In this document: positions 3,036 through 64,000 of the stretch, one piece after another
Layout: each line of letters opens with the position of its first letter
Numbering within the stretch: position 1 is the first letter of the stretch
DNA from: Candidatus Sulfotelmatobacter sp.
GTDB lineage: Bacteria; Acidobacteriota; Terriglobia; Terriglobales; Acidobacteriaceae
Assembly: GCA_036490235.1 (NCBI GenBank)
Contig: DASXEG010000134.1
Span: forward strand, 9,835 to 73,834
Direction: 5' to 3'
DNA length: 64,000 nucleotides
Made by a program: the position numbers and the translations under genes
The notes under the pieces: generated by a model
The model's input: the letters and a program-made list of their open reading frames with translations, nothing else
Database searches by the model: none
Told to the model about the DNA's origin: nothing

Positions 3036-4655
3036 ATGAAGAGAACCCGGGCAAGAATTCTAGCTGCCGCGCTAGTTGCGTTCACCTGTTTCCCAATCTT
3101 CGCGCTGGCGCAAAGCGGCGGAGAACTCCGTTTTTGCCTCCGCCTGGAACCGAAGACATTCGATCCACTTAAAGTGGAAGACGAAGCTTCAGCTGCAGTT
3201 CGTTATCTCACAGGCGGAACGCTAATGCGGATCAACCGGCAGACTCAGGAGCTCGAGCCCGAGTTGGCGCTGGCGTGGAAGGTATCGAAGGATGGCCGCC
3301 AGATCAGCTTTCGCCTGCGCAGTGGAGTTGCTTTTTCCGATGGCACTCCGTTTTCGTCTTCGGACGTGGCATATACCATTCAGCAGTTGATGGATCCGGC
3401 TCTGCATTCGGCTACGGGCGACGCGTTTCGCTCCGGAACGGGCAGCGTTGAAACTAAGGTGATCTCTCCGACGCAGATCTCTGTTACTTTTCCTGCGCCG
3501 GTCGCAGAGCTTGACCGGCTTTTCGATCAGGTTGCAATTCTTTCGCAACATTCACCGAAGCGGGAACTGGCCGTGCTCGGGCCATTCATGCTCGCAGATT
3601 ACAAAGCGGGCGCATCGGTGCTGCTCAAACGAAATCCCAATTATTGGAAGACGGATGAACAGGGACGCAAGCTGCCATATCTCGATTCCATCCGCATGGA
3701 CATTCAGCCAAATCGCGATGTCGAGATGCTGCGCTTTAAGCGGGGAGAACTCGATCTCATCAACTCTCTCGATAGCGAATACTTCGACAAGCTGGCGTCC
3801 ACCTCGCCGCAGGTCGCTCATGATGCGGGACCATCCCTCGATAGCGAACAGCTATGGTTCAACGAAGTAGCGAAGGCACCCATTCCCGACTACAAGAAAG
3901 CATGGTTTCGGTCAGCAGAGTTTCGGCGAGCAGTTTCCGAAGCTATCAATCGCGAGGACTTGAGCCGCATCGTCTACCATGGGCATGCTCAGCCTGCCGC
4001 TGGGCCATTCTCTCCTTCGAATAAGTTCTGGTTCAACGCTAAACTCAAGCCGCTGGCCTACGATTCCGATGCCGCGCTGAAAGCCTTGCAGAACGCCGGT
4101 TTCCGCATGGAGAACGGCACGCTTAAGGACAAGGCTGGTAACGCCGTTGTGTTCTCGATCATTACCAACGCGGGCAGCAAACCGCGCGAGCGCATGGCAG
4201 TCCTGATCCAGGATGACCTGCAGAAAATCGGCATCCATGTGAACGTAGTCACGCTCGACTTCCCTTCCCTGATCGAGCGCATGACGCAAAGTTTTGATTA
4301 CGAAGCGATCATTCTCGGACTGACGAATGTCGATCTCGATCCCAATGGCGAGATGAACGTGTGGCTGAGTTCGGCCGAAAATCATCAGTGGAATCCCCAG
4401 CAAAAAGTTCCCGAAACAACATGGGAAGCGGAAATCGACCGGCTGATGCGCGCGCAGGCTTCGGCGATTGCTCCTTCGAAGCGTAAACAGGCGTTCGATC
4501 GCGTACAGGAAATCGTGGTGGAAGAGGAACCATTCATTTTCCTGATTAACAAGAATTCTCTGTCGGCCGTTTCAACCCGAGTACACGGCGCGGTTCCTGT
4601 CATCTTGTCGCCGCAGACATTCTGGAACGCAGAGCGGCTCACGGTTTCGCAGTAA
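3036..4655 (+). CDS. ABC transporter substrate-binding protein, family 5 (peptide/nickel)
   Basis: MKRTRARILAAALVAF... is a signal peptide. The length (~540 aa) and motifs (LKRNPNYW, ANLEVWLSS-like NVWLSSAENHQWN) fit SBP family 5. It sits inside the permease/ATPase operon. Confidence 0.85.
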   Translation: MKRTRARILAAALVAFTCFPIFALAQSGGELRFCLRLEPKTFDPLKVEDEASAAVRYLTGGTLMRINRQTQELEPELALAWKVSKDGRQISFRLRSGVAFSDGTPFSSSDVAYTIQQLMDPALHSATGDAFRSGTGSVETKVISPTQISVTFPAPVAELDRLFDQVAILSQHSPKRELAVLGPFMLADYKAGASVLLKRNPNYWKTDEQGRKLPYLDSIRMDIQPNRDVEMLRFKRGELDLINSLDSEYFDKLASTSPQVAHDAGPSLDSEQLWFNEVAKAPIPDYKKAWFRSAEFRRAVSEAINREDLSRIVYHGHAQPAAGPFSPSNKFWFNAKLKPLAYDSDAALKALQNAGFRMENGTLKDKAGNAVVFSIITNAGSKPRERMAVLIQDDLQKIGIHVNVVTLDFPSLIERMTQSFDYEAIILGLTNVDLDPNGEMNVWLSSAENHQWNPQQKVPETTWEAEIDRLMRAQASAIAPSKRKQAFDRVQEIVVEEEPFIFLINKNSLSAVSTRVHGAVPVILSPQTFWNAERLTVSQ

Positions 4656-4694
4656 TCGCACGGACTTTCGGATTCGCACGCATCCAGAAATGAA

Positions 4695-5537
4695 TTGATA
4701 TCGATGTCCTCCGCAATCCCCAATCCGGCTCTGCTTTCGGCGCGCCTCTCGGTTGCTTATTCCGCCAAGCAAGTCCTGCGCGATGTGCAGTTCGAAATCC
4801 AGCGCGGCGAAGTATTAGGCCTAGTCGGCCAGAGCGGCTCGGGCAAAAGCACCTTGGCAATGGCGATTCTTGGGCTTCTGGACAAAAAGACGACTCAAAC
4901 CGAAGGCGCCATCAAGTTTGAAGACCGCGATCTGTTGCAATTGTCCGAGCGCGAGCTTCGCACGCTGCGTGGCCGCGCCATCGCGCTCGTCTTGCAAAGC
5001 CCGCTTTCATCGCTGAATCCAGCGCTCCGCATTCGAACCCAACTCAAAGAAGCCTGGCGCGCTCACGCTCCCGGTTCTGGTGCCGAGTGCGAAGGAGCGA
5101 TTCGAAACTCTTTAGAGAGCGTCTCGCTACCCGCTACGACCGATTTTCTGTGCAAATATCCTTCGCAAATGAGCGTCGGACAAGCGCAACGTGTGTTGAT
5201 TGCAATGGCCATACTGCACCGGCCGGCGCTGCTCATCGCCGACGAGGCGACCAGCGCGCTTGATGTAATTACGCAATCCGAAATTCTCACCTTGTTTCGC
5301 GCCCTCAATCGCTCGACCGGAATGGCGATTCTGTATATTTCCCACGATCTCGCCTCCGTCGCGGGAATTTGCGATCGCATTGCGATTCTTCATCAGGGCG
5401 AGATCGTCGAGTGCGCCGCGACGGCACAAATATTTACCAGCCCGCAGCATTCGTATACGCAGCAACTCATGGCAGCTCTACCGCGCATTCCACACACACA
5501 GCTGGCCGCCGCAGCCCATGCAGCCACGGTGCGATAG
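4695..5537 (+). CDS. ABC transporter ATP-binding protein (DppD/OppD-like)
   Basis: Walker A is GQSGSGKST, the signature is MSVGQAQRV, and Walker B is LLIADEATSALD. Confidence 0.9.
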   Translation: MISMSSAIPNPALLSARLSVAYSAKQVLRDVQFEIQRGEVLGLVGQSGSGKSTLAMAILGLLDKKTTQTEGAIKFEDRDLLQLSERELRTLRGRAIALVLQSPLSSLNPALRIRTQLKEAWRAHAPGSGAECEGAIRNSLESVSLPATTDFLCKYPSQMSVGQAQRVLIAMAILHRPALLIADEATSALDVITQSEILTLFRALNRSTGMAILYISHDLASVAGICDRIAILHQGEIVECAATAQIFTSPQHSYTQQLMAALPRIPHTQLAAAAHAATVR

Positions 5538-57525: not shown

Positions 57526-57601
57526 GGCCAGGTAGCTCAGGTGGTAGAGCGCAGCCCTGAAAAGGCTGGCGTCGGCGGTTCAACTCCGTCCCTGGCCACC
57601 A
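57526..57601 (+). tRNA. tRNA-Phe (anticodon GAA), CCA encoded
   Basis: The cloverleaf is GGCCAGG-TA-GCTC-AGGTGGTA-GAGC-G-CAGCC-CTGAAAA-GGCTG-GCGTC-GGCGG-TTCAACT-CCGTC-CCTGGCC-A-CCA. Confidence 0.92.
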
Positions 57602-57756
57602 TGTTTTCAATCATTTACCTCCGTTCGGAAATCCCAACCTGTTCCAATTTGTTCCAAAAAAAATAAAGCTGGACCTACCGGGTTCGCCTGCTCAGTAGAT
57701 GTTTGCCCCCAGACTGCAAGCTCCAGCGCCGATTTTCGCCTTTGGAGATTACCCAA

Positions 57757-58185
57757 ATGACAACCTTCACTTTTCGAGCGCCGGAAGAGATAACGACAAG
57801 CCTTACTTCCGCCGAGATGCGTTCATGGCTGCATGATTTTATTCACCAGCCTCATTCGTTGCCGCCGGATCCAGGTTCAGGGTACGGGCGTGTTTCGTTA
57901 ACGCTGCCAGCAGATGCCGTCAATGCTGTTGCCACGTACTCGAACTCGTCCACCAGTTCTGCTCTTCGGCGGATCGCAGTAGCGCGCTTGGGCCTGCGAA
58001 GTCTTAGCAGTCCCGAGGATTACAGCGCCCCTCATCGTTCCCCGGCAGCTCCTGCGTCCGGAAGGTCGCAAGACAATTCGCGATCAGGAGATGAAGTCGC
58101 CGGAGCACTGGTGTCGTTTGTCATTTGGATCATTTTCGTCGGAATTGCAATTCTCGCTGCCTCGAGCAGGAAGAAAGATGGTTAA
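57757..58185 (+). CDS. Hypothetical protein, possible ribbon-helix-helix-like N-terminus with C-terminal TM anchor
   Basis: ATG 57757 is preceded by ggagattacccaa. RVSLTLPADAVNAVATYSNSSTSSALRRIAVARL resembles an RHH strand-helix-helix. The C-terminal GALVSFVIWIIFVGIAILAASS is a TM helix. Confidence 0.5.
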   Translation: MTTFTFRAPEEITTSLTSAEMRSWLHDFIHQPHSLPPDPGSGYGRVSLTLPADAVNAVATYSNSSTSSALRRIAVARLGLRSLSSPEDYSAPHRSPAAPASGRSQDNSRSGDEVAGALVSFVIWIIFVGIAILAASSRKKDG

Positions 58186-58299: not shown

Positions 58300-58599
58300 G
58301 TGTTGGAACAGAACATGTCACATTTACCTCGTTACAACAGGTTGAAACAACGTGCGCTGAGCGTATTCGAATGTCATGGTGGCTGGATCAGGCCGACAGA
58401 GTGGGCCGTTCTCGTTGGTTTCTATCCGATCCGCGCCGCGTATTCCTATTTACTTCGGTTACATCGTTTTGGGCTTTTGGAGCGTTTTAAGACAACTGCA
58501 GGGATCGTGTATCGGCTCTCTGAGCGTGGGGCTGGACGACTGGAATGGCTGACGAATGTAGCGAAAACAAGGGCTGCATCCGTGCCAAGACGTCGATGA
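58300..58599 (+). CDS. Hypothetical small protein, possible winged-helix DNA-binding fold
   Basis: WIRPTEWAVLVGFYPIRAAYSYLLRLHRFGLLERFKTTAGIVYRLSERG resembles an HTH plus beta-wing pattern. The start is GTG 58300 or ATG 58315. Confidence 0.45.
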   Translation: MLEQNMSHLPRYNRLKQRALSVFECHGGWIRPTEWAVLVGFYPIRAAYSYLLRLHRFGLLERFKTTAGIVYRLSERGAGRLEWLTNVAKTRAASVPRRR

Positions 58600-58675: not shown

Positions 58676-59632
58676 CTATTTCGTGGGTTTCGATTGGCTA
58701 ACCAAACGTCCTCTCGGCTCCATGCCTTCGAACTCAAACGGAAGGCCCTTATCCAGGCCGAGAGACAAAGAGATCGCAAGCAAACTTCGTCCAGCCGCTG
58801 AGTTTTGAGCTTCTTCATTGATACTGCACCACTGGCACATTCCGGATTCCGATAGATCTGCCGGTTCAAAACATCCTCCACAGACACTCGCGATGCTCTG
58901 AAAGTCATCTCCGGACCATGTCGAGGCGCGCAGATCTGAATCCGTAAAAAATGGCTTGAACGTTCGAGCACCGATTCGTAGCTGAACGATTGGAACGCTC
59001 CACTCTCTAGCACGTGCTTTGCATAAGTCTTTGACACTCGACTCCGCGTTAGGTCCTAAAATGACGCAGCGAAGCGCGGCTCGACTGAATCGACCAAGCA
59101 AAACACCGTCGAGATCCTCTACTGCATTCGGTGGAACCACAATTCTTCTTTCAGCTTCATACTGCCAGTCGGTCCTTTTCCTAAAGTATGCGGCCCGGTG
59201 CGCCGCTGCTATTAGAGCCAGAGCGTGTCTACGTTTCCCAGTCATATACGCATATTTAAGTATTCCCGAATCTATCGTTGCGGGGCCATCCGCATATTCG
59301 ATGTCACCCGCATACGCGATCGGCAGTTCCTTCACTAAGACGTCCTCGTCAAGCCCAAGGCATATCCCTGCACATTCTTTACCATAGTGTGCCCACATTA
59401 CGACCGAGTCCGGTCGCCTTGAAAAGCACGCTACCGGAGTTTCGACCACCTTCCCGAGAAAATACGCATAAAATGCGCGGTGCTCTTCGCTTTCCAGCGG
59501 TGGATCGGGCTGCAGGAATAGCTCGTAGGGATCGTTGTAGTGTTTTGGAAGCCCAAAGCGAATTGATAAGCCATTGGCACTCACGAATACTTTTGAGACC
59601 GAGTCTGGACCTACGTATTTGAATATCAACAT
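58676..59632 (-). CDS. DUF2971-family protein with C-terminal CxxC...CxxC tail
   Basis: The DUF2971 pattern is IFKY, RFGLPKHYNDPYE, VACFSRRPDSVVMWAHYGKECAGICLGL, KRTDWQYEAERRIV. The tail reads SVCGGCFEPADLSESGMCQWCS. It starts 22 nt after the upstream stop, with a purine-rich gaagagaaagaagc before the ATG. Confidence 0.75.
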   Translation of the reverse strand: MLIFKYVGPDSVSKVFVSANGLSIRFGLPKHYNDPYELFLQPDPPLESEEHRAFYAYFLGKVVETPVACFSRRPDSVVMWAHYGKECAGICLGLDEDVLVKELPIAYAGDIEYADGPATIDSGILKYAYMTGKRRHALALIAAAHRAAYFRKRTDWQYEAERRIVVPPNAVEDLDGVLLGRFSRAALRCVILGPNAESSVKDLCKARAREWSVPIVQLRIGARTFKPFFTDSDLRASTWSGDDFQSIASVCGGCFEPADLSESGMCQWCSINEEAQNSAAGRSLLAISLSLGLDKGLPFEFEGMEPRGRLVSQSKPTK

Positions 59633-59654
59633 GCTTCTTTCTCTTCGATGGTGA

Positions 59655-62600
59655 TCAAGACAGAGTTTTTTCCAAGATCTGCATAACTTTCGGTTTGATT
59701 ACCTCGATATCTACTTCTCCCCTTAAGAACTGGTACACGACCTCGATCAGGACTTCGCCGAGCAAGCCTTGAACAGCGGAAGCCGACCCTGTTCCAGCGC
59801 GCCACTGTTTGCCAATGTCTTCTCGGCAGATCACAAACGTTGGATCGTCTTTTCCAGGTTTGGAAGGTCTAGTTACGGCACAGATTGTGAAGTCTGGAGG
59901 AAAATAAGAAATCATGTCTTTAGGCATTGACTCGATGTTGCCGACGTAAATGTCGAGCTCACGCCTCGGAAGCTCTGGTACGGAAAGCATCTGAGCAATG
60001 CTTTGCTCGAAACCCTTGAAAAACATTGCAAGCAAAGCTGAAGCTGTGAAAGTGTCGATACGACCATCTAGACACGTAATCGTGACGAGGGCGGGCTTAC
60101 GCAGATTGAGGCCGACGACCCAGGATGAACCCTCTTGTTTAAACCTAAAGTGAAGCCCACTAATTCGGTCCTGTATTTTGTCACCAAGTTGCACCAAATG
60201 GCGAAGAGCCAAGCCGTCCTCAGGAATGCTAGCCAAAAGCTGCATCGCTGGGAAAAGAATCCTCGAAGCCTCTGCATCCTTAGTTTGAGCTGAAAGCTGC
60301 TTCAGAACACGCCCGAATAGAAAACGCGCCACAGGCTGCGGGAGATCTGCAAACATGAATCGGAAGTGCAGTCCGAAAAGCCTAATGGCATGGTCACTGT
60401 GAACATTCCCTAACATGATGTCGATGCAATCAAACAACTGCTCTGTGGCGGGCTTCTTCGCAGCGGCTGTCAGGCCGTAAGCCAGATTGATGCAACCGAT
60501 GTATTTGTCGGGGCCCAAATTCTCGTAGACACATGTCGAGAGCGCATCCACAGTCAGCCTGGATTTTTCCTTGATATCCGTCGAAGCGGCAGCAGCCTTA
60601 GCGTAGGATTCTGCTGCGTTGTCCCACGATCTCGCTGAATAGTGACAGTCTCCGACTTCTTCAAGAGCATCGGCCAGCCCAGTTGAGGCAATGGAGCCCT
60701 CTAGGAGAGCGACAGCAACCTTGGCATGTTCTAGCGCCAAACGATTGTTGCCCTGCGTGCGATATATACCTGCAGTGAGTCTGGCAGCAGATGCCTCGAG
60801 GCTCTTGTCGCTAGACCTACGACCGAGATCTCCAGCTGCAGCGTACTCTGTGATCGCTGCATCCAGTTCGCGTTTGTCTCTGAGCACGTTCCCAACATTT
60901 AGACGATTAATGCCAGCCAGGTTGAGGTCTCCGAGTTCCTCTCCAATTTGCACTGCCTCACGACCATAGGAAAGTGCTTCCTGGAACTGTTTCTTGCGTC
61001 GCAGGGTCCGCACCATGTAGTTGCACAACCAGGCTCTCTCACGCTGGTCCCCTGACTCCTGCTGCTGCTCCTGAAGCTTTTCGATCAGCACTATTGCTTC
61101 CGTTTCTCTGCCGGGGGTCTCTGCCAATGCCGACGCCATATTTCGAATAGAGACGGACACGCCGTAAACGTCTCCGAGATTTTCGAAAATCTTCAGTCCT
61201 CGTTCGGATACAGCGAGAGCCTCTGGAAATCTCTTCGTCCGGGTAAACAATACACTCAACTCAGTCGTTAAACGTCCAGCAGACCAACGGTCTCCAGTTG
61301 CTAAGTATTCCTGTTCTAGTTTCTGCAACATCTCAAGGTATTCAAGGGACAGGGTTGATTTGGCTAAATAGATTGCGCGTACTTCACGTGCACGCAAATT
61401 CAGGATTGGATCACCAGAGCTACTGGCGACCCCATCAACCTCGGCAAAGACAGCGTCCAGCTCCGAAGTCCGACCTGTGTGGTGCAGCGCGTGGGCCCGG
61501 GAAAGAAGCAGAGTCATCAAATCCTGGGGATCCGACTTTTTCCGTGCACTCTCCAGAATGTCATCAACAATGACAAGCTGTGACTTAAAGTCGCCTCTTC
61601 TCTGGGCATCAAACAGTGCGAGGCGCGAGATCGACTTCGCAGCAGACTTGTCTGCCTCGCGAAGAACAAGAAATGCGTGGAGATAGTCGCCACGCGCTCT
61701 TAGAAGTGTTGCGACACGGCCACTGTAATATGCAAATTTACTCGGGCTTGTGGACAGCTGCTCTCGAATCGTGAGTCTCTGGTGTTCATGTCGGAGCGCA
61801 TAGCCATTGGGGAACTCCGCGACGAAGACTTGAGCTCGTTGTAGCGTATCCGTCATTTCTTCAAGGGGCCCGCCACCCTGTCCCACCAATCCAACTAGCT
61901 CTACAAGAGAGATTCGTTGATTGGCTATAGCCAGATACGAGGCCAGTTCGCGAGCTAAGGGCTCCAGCTTGCGCCAAGCGTCTAATTCATACTCGCGAAA
62001 ACTCTTTTCAGAAGCGACTTCGGGCGATTGAGAAAAATACAGAAGATATAACGGATTGCCCGCGGACTTCTTATAGATCTCCTCTAGTTCTTCCCCTGAC
62101 AGTTCCTTGCCATGGCTCGTCAAGAACTCCGTTGCCTCCGAGAAAGAGAGACCAGGAACCGTAAAACGTGTGTGTCCAAATCGCGCATCTGCAATCCTGA
62201 TGCTGTAGATCAATCTTTTCGTTTTGCTAGCAGGCCCAGCATTTTTGAGAAAAGCTGCCACGAACTCGGGGTCCGAACAATCGTCGATCACTAATGTGAA
62301 AGTCTCGGCGGTTCGCCATTCTTCCAGGAGAGCTGAAAATGCGCTGGTTGCGTCGGCGAAATACCGCGTGTTGGCGCCTCTTGCGGAAGCCAATTTGTTG
62401 GTGACCACAGCTGCAAGCTCATGATTGTCCAGCTGGGTTGCGCTTACGAAAAGAAAACCATTGTCCTTCGCAACTGTGGCTAGAAATACGGTTTTACCTA
62501 TTCCCAGTTCCCCAGAGACCTGGAGAACGTGGTCGGACGAAAGTTGCTCCAGCAAGAGGTCAGCGAGTTTCTTGCGCATCAGTAACGACTTCGGGGCTGG

Positions 62601-63122
62601 AATAAGACCCGATACAGCTGCAGCTGCATCTGTGTGGACTATGGCTTCTAGACGCTCTGCTTCGTGAAAGCGCTCGGTGACTTCGGCTTCAATATCTTCA
62701 CGAATCCTCTCATAGAGTTCCTCAGGGTTGCGATACCTAGAATATGTAATCTCCGATTGCACTTCCTTCAACATCGCGGACAATCGCGGATCTCGATCCT
62801 GGGCAGGATCAAGCACGTAGACGAGTCGAGGCATTCCCCTTTGACTCGAGCGGCGCAACTCGTCTTCGATCCCGGAGATTGCTGCTCCAGGTGCTACCCA
62901 GCCGTACCCATTCCGGTAGATGCTTATGAAAATGTCAGACTGGTCTAATTTCCCTAGATATAGCGCTCTTGGTGACACTGATCGAGCGCCGATGTGCTCG
63001 AATAGAATTGCGTCGTGATTGAGGGACTCGATTGCGCGCTTTGCCGCGGAACGCTCGGCCGCGCACTCTCCGATAGTCGAACTCACGAAAATTTGCAGCT
63101 TCTCCTGAATCCGTTCAGACAT
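59655..63122 (-). CDS. DUF4062 / P-loop STAND NTPase / TPR-repeat protein with unassigned C-terminal domain (1155 aa)
   Basis: aa 8-105 match the DUF4062 pattern (LQIFVSSTIGECAAERSAAKRAIESLNHDAILFEHIGAR...SDIFISIYRNGYGWV...ISGIEDELRR...PRLVYVLD). Walker A GELGIGKT is at aa 204-211 (nt 62490-62513). Walker B TFTLVIDD is at aa 274-281. A GNPLYL motif follows as in NB-ARC/STAND. aa ~600-880 are TPR-like helical repeats. The last ~280 aa have no motif I recognise. Confidence 0.8.
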   Translation of the reverse strand: MSERIQEKLQIFVSSTIGECAAERSAAKRAIESLNHDAILFEHIGARSVSPRALYLGKLDQSDIFISIYRNGYGWVAPGAAISGIEDELRRSSQRGMPRLVYVLDPAQDRDPRLSAMLKEVQSEITYSRYRNPEELYERIREDIEAEVTERFHEAERLEAIVHTDAAAAVSGLIPAPKSLLMRKKLADLLLEQLSSDHVLQVSGELGIGKTVFLATVAKDNGFLFVSATQLDNHELAAVVTNKLASARGANTRYFADATSAFSALLEEWRTAETFTLVIDDCSDPEFVAAFLKNAGPASKTKRLIYSIRIADARFGHTRFTVPGLSFSEATEFLTSHGKELSGEELEEIYKKSAGNPLYLLYFSQSPEVASEKSFREYELDAWRKLEPLARELASYLAIANQRISLVELVGLVGQGGGPLEEMTDTLQRAQVFVAEFPNGYALRHEHQRLTIREQLSTSPSKFAYYSGRVATLLRARGDYLHAFLVLREADKSAAKSISRLALFDAQRRGDFKSQLVIVDDILESARKKSDPQDLMTLLLSRAHALHHTGRTSELDAVFAEVDGVASSSGDPILNLRAREVRAIYLAKSTLSLEYLEMLQKLEQEYLATGDRWSAGRLTTELSVLFTRTKRFPEALAVSERGLKIFENLGDVYGVSVSIRNMASALAETPGRETEAIVLIEKLQEQQQESGDQRERAWLCNYMVRTLRRKKQFQEALSYGREAVQIGEELGDLNLAGINRLNVGNVLRDKRELDAAITEYAAAGDLGRRSSDKSLEASAARLTAGIYRTQGNNRLALEHAKVAVALLEGSIASTGLADALEEVGDCHYSARSWDNAAESYAKAAAASTDIKEKSRLTVDALSTCVYENLGPDKYIGCINLAYGLTAAAKKPATEQLFDCIDIMLGNVHSDHAIRLFGLHFRFMFADLPQPVARFLFGRVLKQLSAQTKDAEASRILFPAMQLLASIPEDGLALRHLVQLGDKIQDRISGLHFRFKQEGSSWVVGLNLRKPALVTITCLDGRIDTFTASALLAMFFKGFEQSIAQMLSVPELPRRELDIYVGNIESMPKDMISYFPPDFTICAVTRPSKPGKDDPTFVICREDIGKQWRAGTGSASAVQGLLGEVLIEVVYQFLRGEVDIEVIKPKVMQILEKTLS

Positions 63123-63999
63123 TCAATGGCTCCAGAAGATTTAGCTGCGCGAGTTTCCTTTGAAGGTTATCCAGATCTAGCGATGAGATCGTCTGTCGCT
63201 CTGCTTCCAGCAGGGCAATTGCATCCAGTTGTACCTGCGCGATTATTTGTTCTGTGGAGAATCTTGAGATTTCAGGCGTATCTGATCTCTCTTCTCGCCC
63301 TTCGAGTGCCTTCGTTACTCCACTGGTTAATTCTTCCGCAGTTAGGTTAGGGTAGAAAAGCAAGCCATCGAATAGAGATGCACTCAGAAGCAAGTTGCAT
63401 GCTGCTTGTTTGACCTGCCATTCTTTGACGCCCCTCGATTGCAACACATTCATCATTCCTGCGTACCTCCCAGCCCGGATACGTTCAATCGTTACCGGGA
63501 AGTATCGTTCAAGCATCCTAGTTCTATGTCGGAAGTATTCCTCGGGTTGCTGGGGTTCCGGGGCGGGCAGAGACGAAAGAAAATCTCTCTTCTGGTGCTT
63601 TCTGATAGGCTCCGAATTCGGTTTGTTCCGGAGCAACGAGTAGAAGCTGGTGCCCGGCAAGATGGCATCCTCATCAAGGAAGTCCGCTTCGAACTTTAGA
63701 ACTGGAGCAACTTCATCCAAAGGATCAATGTTGTTAGGCGCTGGCGTACTAGGAGTTTCTAGCACGGCCGCACCCAGCAAAAACGGGGAGATCAAGAAAG
63801 CTTGCTTGTATTGCCGTAGTTCTTCAAGGGCTGGGTGGCGGGTGTCAAACTGTTTGATATAGCTTCCCCCAAATAGGATCGTAGAGTAAATGCGATCTGA
63901 TCCTGTGAGATCATGAGTTGTCCTACTTGGCTCCCGCTCGATGCACAGTAAGTAGCCACCATCCTTTAGGAAGATAAATGTGAGCTTAACTGCATCCCC
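63115..63999 (-). CDS. Hypothetical protein, 5'-truncated by the window edge (first visible gene of the island operon)
   Basis: My manual translation shows the frame of ORF 63115..63795 stays open from 63796 to 63999 (GDAVKLTFIFLKDGGYLLCIEREPSRTTHDLTGSDRIYSTILFGGSYIKQFDTRHPALEELRQYKQAF then LISPF...). The listed start at 63795 is a TTG. Its stop TGA (63115-63117) overlaps the ATG (63120-63122) of the next gene as ATGTCTGA. Confidence 0.65.
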   Translation of the reverse strand, partial: GDAVKLTFIFLKDGGYLLCIEREPSRTTHDLTGSDRIYSTILFGGSYIKQFDTRHPALEELRQYKQAFLISPFLLGAAVLETPSTPAPNNIDPLDEVAPVLKFEADFLDEDAILPGTSFYSLLRNKPNSEPIRKHQKRDFLSSLPAPEPQQPEEYFRHRTRMLERYFPVTIERIRAGRYAGMMNVLQSRGVKEWQVKQAACNLLLSASLFDGLLFYPNLTAEELTSGVTKALEGREERSDTPEISRFSTEQIIAQVQLDAIALLEAERQTISSLDLDNLQRKLAQLNLLEPLNV

Positions 64000-64000
64000 G

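Follow-up and report, generated by a model that had tools for sequence, protein, structure and literature searches.

Three minus-strand genes follow one another almost without spacing at the end of a 64,000-nucleotide (nt) stretch of DNA from Candidatus Sulfotelmatobacter sp. (contig DASXEG010000134.1, positions 9,835 to 73,834; the whole stretch is called the window below). The question raised by this locus is which of these genes belong together, and what they do. An initial annotation regarded the trio, which encodes an unfamiliar protein, a large NLR-like protein and a DUF2971 zinc-ribbon protein, as a candidate defence system of an uncharacterised kind. The comparisons described here show that the conserved unit consists of two of the three genes, the large gene and the gene upstream of it, g386.

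The large gene (59655..63122, minus strand) encodes a NIR(DUF4062)-STAND-TPR protein of 1155 amino acids (aa) that ends in an additional C-terminal domain (CTD). The 3' part of g386, comprising the C-terminal 295 codons, is located at 63115..64000 (minus strand); no stop codon interrupts the translation of 63115-63999, thus the reading frame continues up to the window edge and past it. The entire gene is present on L001, an 11,985-bp Logan contig that represents the same locus, encodes the identical 1155-aa protein and extends past the window edge. According to this contig (L001 5283-6443) the full length of g386 is 386 aa, the gene ending near window-equivalent position 64275. The DUF2971 gene (58676..59632, minus strand) encodes 318 aa. 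All three minus-strand open reading frames (ORFs) have strong homologues and are real genes, not chance ORFs.

The g386 and NIR-STAND genes overlap by 8 nt (ATGTCTGA, 63115..63122, minus strand), the stop codon of g386 lying within the start of the NIR-STAND gene (...CCA TTG AAT GTC TGA / ATG TCT GAA), and a GGAG sequence is located 11 nt upstream of the NIR-STAND start, within g386. The NIR-STAND and DUF2971 genes are separated by a gap of 22 nt (59633-59654), which is purine-rich and carries gaagagaaagaagc ahead of the ATG at 59632. The tight packing described in the initial annotation was thus confirmed by the coordinates and by reading of the junctions. In a scan of the 57.4-64 kb region, promoter and terminator sites were no more numerous than in shuffled controls; the same scan found no internal terminator between the genes, a result that is uninformative either way.

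Composition of the conserved unit

Relatives of the large protein were collected from one-genome-per-species contigs. The resulting 31 loci belong to Bryobacterales, Acidobacteriaceae, Vicinamibacterales, Ca. Acidiferrales, Alphaproteobacteria (many), Longimicrobiales, Verrucomicrobia, Lentisphaeraceae, Polyangiales and Neomarinimicrobiota. A g386 homologue was found directly upstream on the same strand in all 31 (29 by tblastn, and two more by phmmer on upstream ORFs, with E-values of 1e-12 and 1e-14), and the flanking genes varied from locus to locus. The reverse search, made with a g386 profile, yielded 42 metagenome loci, and the NIR-STAND gene was directly downstream in 39 of the 40 that could be assessed. 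Two further loci had no room downstream, and in the remaining one (L077) g386 is fragmented and 876 nt are left. The spacing is also conserved: among 68 junctions the two genes overlapped by 8 nt in 27 and by 4 nt in 12, and 66 of the junctions fell within 31 nt. Two DUF4062-STAND proteins taken from other families had no g386 upstream.

The other genes of the locus behaved differently. Neighbours were searched for in the 31 genome loci by tblastn (1e-3) and by phmmer --max (E <= 10), and no significant match was obtained with the DUF2971 protein, the integrase, or the BglII-like nuclease, 489-aa and Rep-like proteins that are encoded farther along the locus (see below). DUF2971 did not occur beside the module in any of the 31 genome loci, in any of the 42 metagenome loci, or in the three close relatives. 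In the latter, which are 84%, 65% and 61% identical, a g386 homologue overlaps the large gene by the same 8 nt, and the genes downstream are unrelated. The 84% relative (L033) is carried by an element with a similar integrase and REP_ORF2-G2P gene and with other cargo, and the gene downstream of the module is a different one on the opposite strand. Units of three and of five genes were therefore rejected, no other cargo gene recurring in the 31 genome loci. Because DUF2971 is absent from all loci and g386 is present in all genome loci, the trio is refuted as a conserved unit, an outcome which the initial annotation had named beforehand as refuting, and is replaced by a two-gene module in which g386 is the obligate partner of the large gene.

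The module has a patchy distribution across at least seven phyla and is found on islands and plasmids. In 25 sampled loci the neighbours included Gabija (3 loci), SIR2_2, PIN_12, HEPN_LA2681, STALD and an N6 methylase, and integrases, relaxases, TrwC/TrwB and transposases were present among the mobility genes. These defence-type neighbours are raw counts without a background rate and are supportive only; for NIR genes in general, an enrichment of 20% versus 3.9% has been published.

Two copies look decayed, either by pseudogenisation or by assembly error. In a metagenome-assembled genome of Ca. Acidiferrales (L011, 9983-13510) the NIR-STAND frame is split into three ORFs of 139, 209 and 821 aa, and the fragmented g386 homologue of L077 is at 3579-4988 of a metagenome contig.

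The two proteins and an effector-swapped variant

Pfam searches with the 1155-aa protein gave a DUF4062 match (PF13271; aa 10-90, 65.3 bits against a cut-off of 24.7, E 6e-18) and a TPR_12 match (7e-12), the matches to AAA_16 and NB-ARC being weak. The NIR/DUF4062 TIR-like domain extends over aa 8-160 (62643..63101, minus strand). It is followed by the STAND NTPase module (aa 184-458; 61749..62573, minus strand), which is made up of a P-loop domain, a helical domain and a winged helix, and by the TPR/helical repeat region (aa 459-988; 60159..61748, minus strand). The family-specific CTD, as predicted by the model, is an alpha/beta domain (aa 989-1155; 59658..60158, minus strand). In the AlphaFold2 model, which has a predicted local distance difference test score (pLDDT) of 86, these parts appear as a five-strand beta-alpha domain (8-160), an NTPase module (184-458), about 26 paired helices (459-988) and an alpha/beta domain (989-1155); the model thus has the tripartite effector-NTPase-repeat layout. 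The CTD is modelled with strands at 990-1017, 1055-1062 and 1081-1099 plus helices (pLDDT ~80-93), and had no match in Pfam or among the PDB sequences.

When a profile of the family was compared with the PDB sequences, the STAND protein PH0952 (6mfv) was matched over aa 198-478 (2.6e-13), and a plant NLR was also found (1.9e-4). Foldseek of the model returned 6mfv (3e-12), Avs3 (3e-10), Avs4 (3e-7) and CED-4 (4e-7); the likeness to Avs3 and Avs4 is at the level of the whole protein, with a low template modelling (TM) score of 0.14. None of the PADLOC Avs family models matched the protein at E <= 0.1, the single match being to a generic TPR model (2.5e-4). Taking into account the profile searches, Foldseek and the AlphaFold2 model, the assignment of the 1155-aa protein as an NLR-like STAND protein with a putative N-terminal effector domain, already proposed in the initial annotation, is sound. 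Pfam and motif positions also upheld the earlier DUF4062, STAND, TPR, DUF2971 and zinc ribbon calls.

There are about 33 full-length relatives, which are 1150-1175 aa long and 26-100% identical; hundreds of other DUF4062-STAND proteins align to the N-terminal ~20% alone. The residues that are invariant in a 25-member alignment include S83, G84, D87, E88, G207, G209, K210 and D280. Walker A comprises G204-T211 (62490-62513, minus strand) and includes K210 within the invariant G207-x-G209-K210 motif, in line with the earlier proposal that K210 is the Walker A lysine; Walker B is D279-D280. The candidate catalytic residue of the effector domain is E88 (codon 62859-62861, minus strand), which is part of the motif S83-G84-x-x-D87-E88 and in the model is located at the start of the helix following strand 3. 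Among 120 DUF4062-STAND proteins E88 was 99% conserved, and D87, S83 and G84 were conserved there too. The least conserved stretch of the protein is aa 871-988, with a mean pairwise column identity of 0.24 compared to 0.52 for the NIR domain.

The partner protein is less easily placed. A basic, KRKRR-like tail at its N-terminus precedes an alpha/beta domain, and the C-terminal domain is helical; in the alignment conservation begins at a GFDFG motif. No catalytic set can be recognised among the residues that are both polar and invariant (K, E, R, Q, N, D). No match was found in Pfam, PADLOC, PHROGs or NCBIfam, nor was any PDB sequence matched by the g386 profile at E <= 10, and hhalign found the g386 profile to be unrelated to that of the large protein. 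An AlphaFold2 model of P0125, a homologue 54% identical to g386, has a pLDDT of 81.6 and shows the alpha/beta and helical domains. Foldseek searches with this model gave no structural match (best E-values of 0.17 in PDB and 0.013 in BFVD, both with TM ~0.1). A likeness to purine nucleoside phosphorylase, which recurred as weak matches (TM ~0.1, E > 0.3), was dismissed as noise. The 27 relatives found in a word-indexed database are all labelled 'hypothetical'. Among 1.84 billion cluster representatives, 375 clusters were detected with a profile, 325 of them at E <= 1e-10, and all of these are stand-alone proteins of ~340-420 aa with no fusions.

The g386 C-terminus carries a conserved 'LLEP' (63131-63141, minus strand), whose codons (CTG GAG CC) include a GGAG that serves the next gene as ribosome-binding site. 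The idea that the tail is a TPR-docking peptide was downgraded because these codons hold the ribosome-binding site.

One relative is informative about the division of labour between the two proteins. The only plasmid match of g386 was to the Clostridium botulinum plasmid pOsaka2020-1 (L079, NZ_AP025141.1 6995-11615), in which a Shedu nuclease gene lies just upstream of the set. The g386 homologue encoded there (329 aa; hhalign 99.4%, E 6e-21) is followed, with an 8-nt overlap, by a 141-aa protein, and then by a 1067-aa NB-ARC/TPR/CTD protein. In BLASTP the latter matches the window protein over aa 178-1132 (3e-27), and it is devoid of NIR; since the alignment reaches aa 1132, the CTD is kept. 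In the 141-aa protein the N-terminus is hydrophobic; matches to HetE-N and GapS6a stayed below threshold. The C-terminus of this protein (...RDINNINGSQIIINK) and the N-terminus of the NLR-like protein (...RDINNVIGTQYILNN) share a motif. Bacterial amyloid signalling pairs are defined by a short motif that an effector carries at its C-terminus and the neighbouring NLR at its N-terminus (Dyrka et al., bioRxiv 10.1101/2020.01.06.895854), and the C. botulinum pair looks like such a BASS-type pair in its sequence. Bell domains and NLR-like architectures are both described as rare or absent in Firmicutes (bioRxiv 10.1101/2020.01.06.895854). The output module has been exchanged in this variant, and the chassis would therefore be an NLR of the cell-death type. 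Because g386 and the chassis persist when the output module is different, g386 would serve the sensing or regulatory side and not the NADase; we regard this as an evenly balanced proposition. A search for further effector-swapped relatives with the C-terminal 285 aa alone returned three short fragments and was uninformative.

Proposed role and its alternatives

The kind of protein encoded by the large gene can no longer be called uncharacterised, because preprints of 2026 show the domain to be an NADase effector. DUF4062 has been renamed NIR, and in the described experiments a Pseudomonas DUF4062-STAND-TPR Avs2 (PsAvs2) protected E. coli by NAD+ depletion and needed the glutamate E108 (Le Mouellic et al., bioRxiv 10.64898/2026.09.04.749371). 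The same domain has been described as a TIR-like NADase yielding ADP-ribose and nicotinamide, and Swarozyc, which carries it, as being activated by a phage portal (Osinski et al., bioRxiv 10.64898/2026.05.01.722283). Evangelion was described by Ibarra-Chavez et al. (2026 preprint). The published catalytic glutamates are E108 in PsAvs2, E97 in KpSwz and E98 in Vulcan.

The window protein has its parts in the same order as NIR-Avs/PsAvs2: an N-terminal NIR domain with a conserved glutamate, then the STAND NTPase in the centre and TPR-type repeats at the C-terminus; by analogy the same output, NAD+ depletion and abortive infection, would be expected. It differs in that PsAvs2 is a single gene, whereas the window family has a coupled partner and the extra C-terminal alpha/beta domain. 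Swarozyc, Evangelion, Vulcan and Vesta likewise combine an NADase effector domain with a mobile defence-island context, and Vesta is also a two-gene operon. Unlike the window protein they have no STAND NTPase, NIR being fused to AUX/HEAT regions or forming a small stand-alone protein. The partner in Vesta is an alkaline phosphatase that is reported to be dispensable for defence, and g386 is unrelated to the components reported for these four systems. Bell/BASS pairs, too, join an NLR-like gene of the NB-ARC/TPR type closely to a neighbour, and the C. botulinum relative has exactly such a pair. In BASS, however, it is the neighbour that encodes the effector, whereas the window protein has its effector (NIR) fused and needs no shared terminal motif; g386 comes in addition, as a third component of the NIR and the C. 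botulinum versions alike. No conserved upstream partner of the g386 type appears in the consulted passages of the 2026 NIR preprints, figures and supplements aside. It follows from these comparisons that the effector and the general architecture had already been characterised and that the obligate, unannotated partner is what is new. The central gene appears from its sequence to be a new member of the NIR-bearing NLR-like defence proteins and, together with g386, a new two-component variant of them.

By analogy with the published NIR proteins, the module is probably a NAD-depleting defence system. We also lean, with somewhat less confidence, towards the fuller statement that the translationally coupled g386 and NIR-STAND genes on the tRNA-Phe island constitute an abortive-infection antiphage system. 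Defence was also the role put forward in the initial annotation, and it is still the best reading of the locus. In the mechanism that we envisage, the partner and the NLR-like protein would be co-produced through translational coupling, and at rest the STAND protein would be held closed. A phage-derived cue could then be perceived through the TPR/helical repeats and the CTD together with g386, acting as a co-receptor or as a guarded or regulatory subunit. Nucleotide-dependent oligomerisation by the P-loop module (K210, D279/D280) would gather the N-terminal NIR domains, and the clustered domains would hydrolyse NAD+ at the E88 site, leading to abortive infection.

Several observations weigh against this reading. 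E88 is equated with the published E108, E97 and E98 by motif position and conservation, not by direct alignment: phmmer of the NIR domain against the PDB sequences found no solved NIR relative. PADLOC v2 assigns neither module gene to a system. Two lineages, Alphaproteobacteria and Longimicrobiales, account for about 18 of the 31 genome loci, which are consequently not fully independent. The partner has no catalytic-looking motif or structural relative, and its role is a guess. A scan of the IMG/VR viral contigs with the g386 profile detected no relative, so nothing ties g386 directly to phage. Conservation of LLEP, finally, may reflect a constraint at the nucleotide level and not a protein interface.

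If the three genes of the window acted together after all, as the initial annotation supposed, their common direction, the 8-nt overlap and the 22-nt gap would be accounted for, and the combination of an NADase with a neighbouring ADP-ribosyltransferase-like protein is biochemically tempting. DUF2971 was, however, missing by tblastn and phmmer (E <= 0.1) from the 31 genome loci, also from the 42 metagenome loci and from the 84/65/61% relatives, and the DUF2971 systems PDC-S31 and Aristaios are each regarded as consisting of a single gene; joint action of the three is extremely unlikely. It is very unlikely that the pair has no immune role and works instead in signalling or regulation, as a STAND-type pair like MalT/AfsR, for the benefit of the mobile element or of host physiology. 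Such a role would fit the weak NCBIfam AfsR matches of the TPR region and the AfsR match in the PDB profile search, the nearest solved STAND protein, PH0952, which has no known immune role, and the several loci that lack a recognisable defence neighbour. It is contradicted by the lack of a DNA-binding domain in either module protein, by the N-terminal NADase-type effector with its catalytic motif intact, and by the patchy spread over at least seven phyla, on islands and plasmids and beside Gabija, Shedu and SIR2.

The remaining alternatives concern what g386 does within a defence module. In Vesta, one of the two-gene NIR systems, NIR is accompanied by an accessory enzyme (an alkaline phosphatase), and g386 might by comparison be a second effector or act after the NADase, for example in handling ADP-ribose or nicotinamide. 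Against this, g386 is kept in the C. botulinum variant without any NIR domain, and it has neither a conserved set of catalytic-type residues nor an enzyme fold match, which makes such a role highly improbable. A brake is easier to reconcile with the data. In that model g386 is an antitoxin-like subunit or a guarded decoy, and its binding or cleavage by the phage, or the loss of its synthesis, frees the NADase. Coupling with the partner gene in first position suits a protective subunit, a change of effector leaves g386 and the chassis together, and g386 is free of enzyme-like motifs. On the other hand, the known single-chain Avs and NIR-Avs proteins are reported to autoinhibit without a partner, and toxicity of the large gene alone is nowhere evident here. 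L077, with its broken g386, has too little downstream sequence to judge the STAND gene. We consider the brake or decoy rather unlikely; it is a sub-case of g386 acting on the sensor side.

The bacterial STAND defence proteins studied so far, including NIR-Avs, consist of one chain, which itself binds a phage protein. The family described here, in the sampled loci, is always paired with a second, coupled protein, and this protein is retained even when the killing domain is exchanged. A tentative extension of the favoured NAD-depletion reading, which we put forward as possible though doubtful, is that g386 founds a new class of bacterial NLR accessory proteins, a dedicated co-receptor or guarded bait that sets what the chassis senses, with interchangeable outputs (a fused NIR, or a separate amyloid-signalled small effector). 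If g386 is a co-receptor or guarded bait, bacteria would use two-component NLR sensing as plants do, and the module would correspond to the paired or guard-type NLRs of plants. The module is compact and clonable (~4.6 kb). Current defence-finder models miss the pair, and with ~375 clusters of the partner family in public data a modest but widespread system is left unannotated.

The island and its other cargo

The module lies close to a tRNA-Phe(GAA) gene (57526..57601, plus strand; ARAGORN), about 1.07 kb separating the tRNA from the stop codon of the DUF2971 gene. The low G+C content of the segment beside the tRNA gene, pointed out in the initial annotation, was confirmed (0.50-0.52 at 58-64 kb versus 0.53-0.59 in the remaining window), and the segment proved to be a mobile island. 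L001 opens with 30 nt that match tRNA-Phe 57554-57583 (from the anticodon loop onward) exactly in reverse complement, and the other end of the contig falls inside the 3' end of the same tRNA-Phe. Thus, the 3' part of the tRNA from 57554 recurs at the far end of the island, beside an integrase gene that lies outside the window; 30 nt of this repeat are visible, the rest being past the contig end. L001 breaks exactly at both copies of the repeat, which we take to be consistent with a 31-mer assembly graph. The integrase (L001 138-1397; Phage_integrase 2.8e-13) is 137 nt from the distal repeat. The distal end accordingly has both an integrase and a directly repeated copy of the tRNA 3' part. Because a direct attachment (att) repeat flanks the region and an integrase is near the distal copy, the region from 57603 onward is a ~12-kb integrative element in tRNA-Phe.

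Along the operon, L001 carries the integrase and a Rep-like gene (both on the opposite strand), then the genes for a 489-aa protein, a 177-aa BglII-like protein, g386, the 1155-aa protein and the DUF2971 protein. The 489-aa and BglII-like genes overlap by 4 nt, 17 nt separate the latter from g386, and the 8-nt overlap and the 22-nt gap follow. The string of three genes seen in the window is therefore part of a string of five co-directional, tightly spaced genes in the source genome.

The DUF2971 gene is best read as stand-alone cargo, independent of the module, whose product by its sequence would be an ADP-ribosyltransferase-like protein of the PDC-S31/Aristaios type. It had been taken, like g386, for a protein of no known function. 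This held for g386, which has no family match, but not for DUF2971, a family that has been placed in the ADP-ribosyltransferase superfamily near DarT (PMC12522546) and that includes Aristaios, a 316-aa DUF2971 protein tested as a single-gene lactococcal antiphage system (PMC11381338). DUF2971 is not mentioned in the running texts of the 2026 NIR preprints. The Pfam match (PF11185) scored 29.1 bits against a cut-off of 22 (E 2.5e-6), PDC-S31 models of PADLOC were matched at 8e-18, 5e-16 and 2.6e-11, and PHROG 1762 at 2e-26. The PADLOC check suggested in the initial annotation thus yielded PDC-S31 for this protein, but it called no system for the other two genes. The ADP-ribosyltransferase-like motifs of the family comprise a conserved Tyr (motif II) and ExE (motif III) (PMC12522546); the window protein has NDPYE (aa 33), MWAHY (aa 79; Y83) and YEAERR (aa 158; E158, E160), the last two of which were matched to the published motifs by eye. 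In size (318 versus 316 aa), in the putative Tyr and ExE motifs and in its strong PDC-S31 matches it resembles Aristaios/PDC-S31, the PDC-S31 models being candidates and the likeness to Aristaios being one of family and description. It differs by a C-terminal CxxC...CxxC zinc ribbon (aa 251-269; 58826-58882, minus strand). Relatives were found by tblastn on 324 plasmids of PLSDB, mostly SSU5-like phage-plasmids, and no Lactococcus plasmid was among the 324.

The 489-aa/BglII-like pair (L001 3266-5265; window-equivalent ~64293-66292) is outside the window, directly upstream of g386 and on the same strand. The 177-aa protein matched a BglII-like nuclease at 4.3e-45, and the 489-aa protein is a coiled-coil protein with sub-threshold EH_Signature, LmuB and SMC-like matches only. 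There is no methyltransferase near the pair; plasmid relatives were not found, and it is not conserved beside the module. It may be a separate nuclease-based defence pair. Like the DUF2971 gene it is probably independent cargo, co-transcribed with the module only here. Overall, what the initial annotation had observed at the locus was confirmed, and its interpretation was supported in part.

At the distal end of the island (L001 138-2376) the tyrosine integrase is followed by a 322-aa protein with weak rolling-circle Rep matches (Rep_trans 0.002). At the proximal end two small plus-strand ORFs, neither with a family match, sit between tRNA-Phe and the oppositely oriented DUF2971 gene (57703-58185 and 58300-58599). 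The product of the first (142-160 aa) has a C-terminal hydrophobic helix, and that of the second (99 aa) a sub-threshold PaaX-like winged-helix match.

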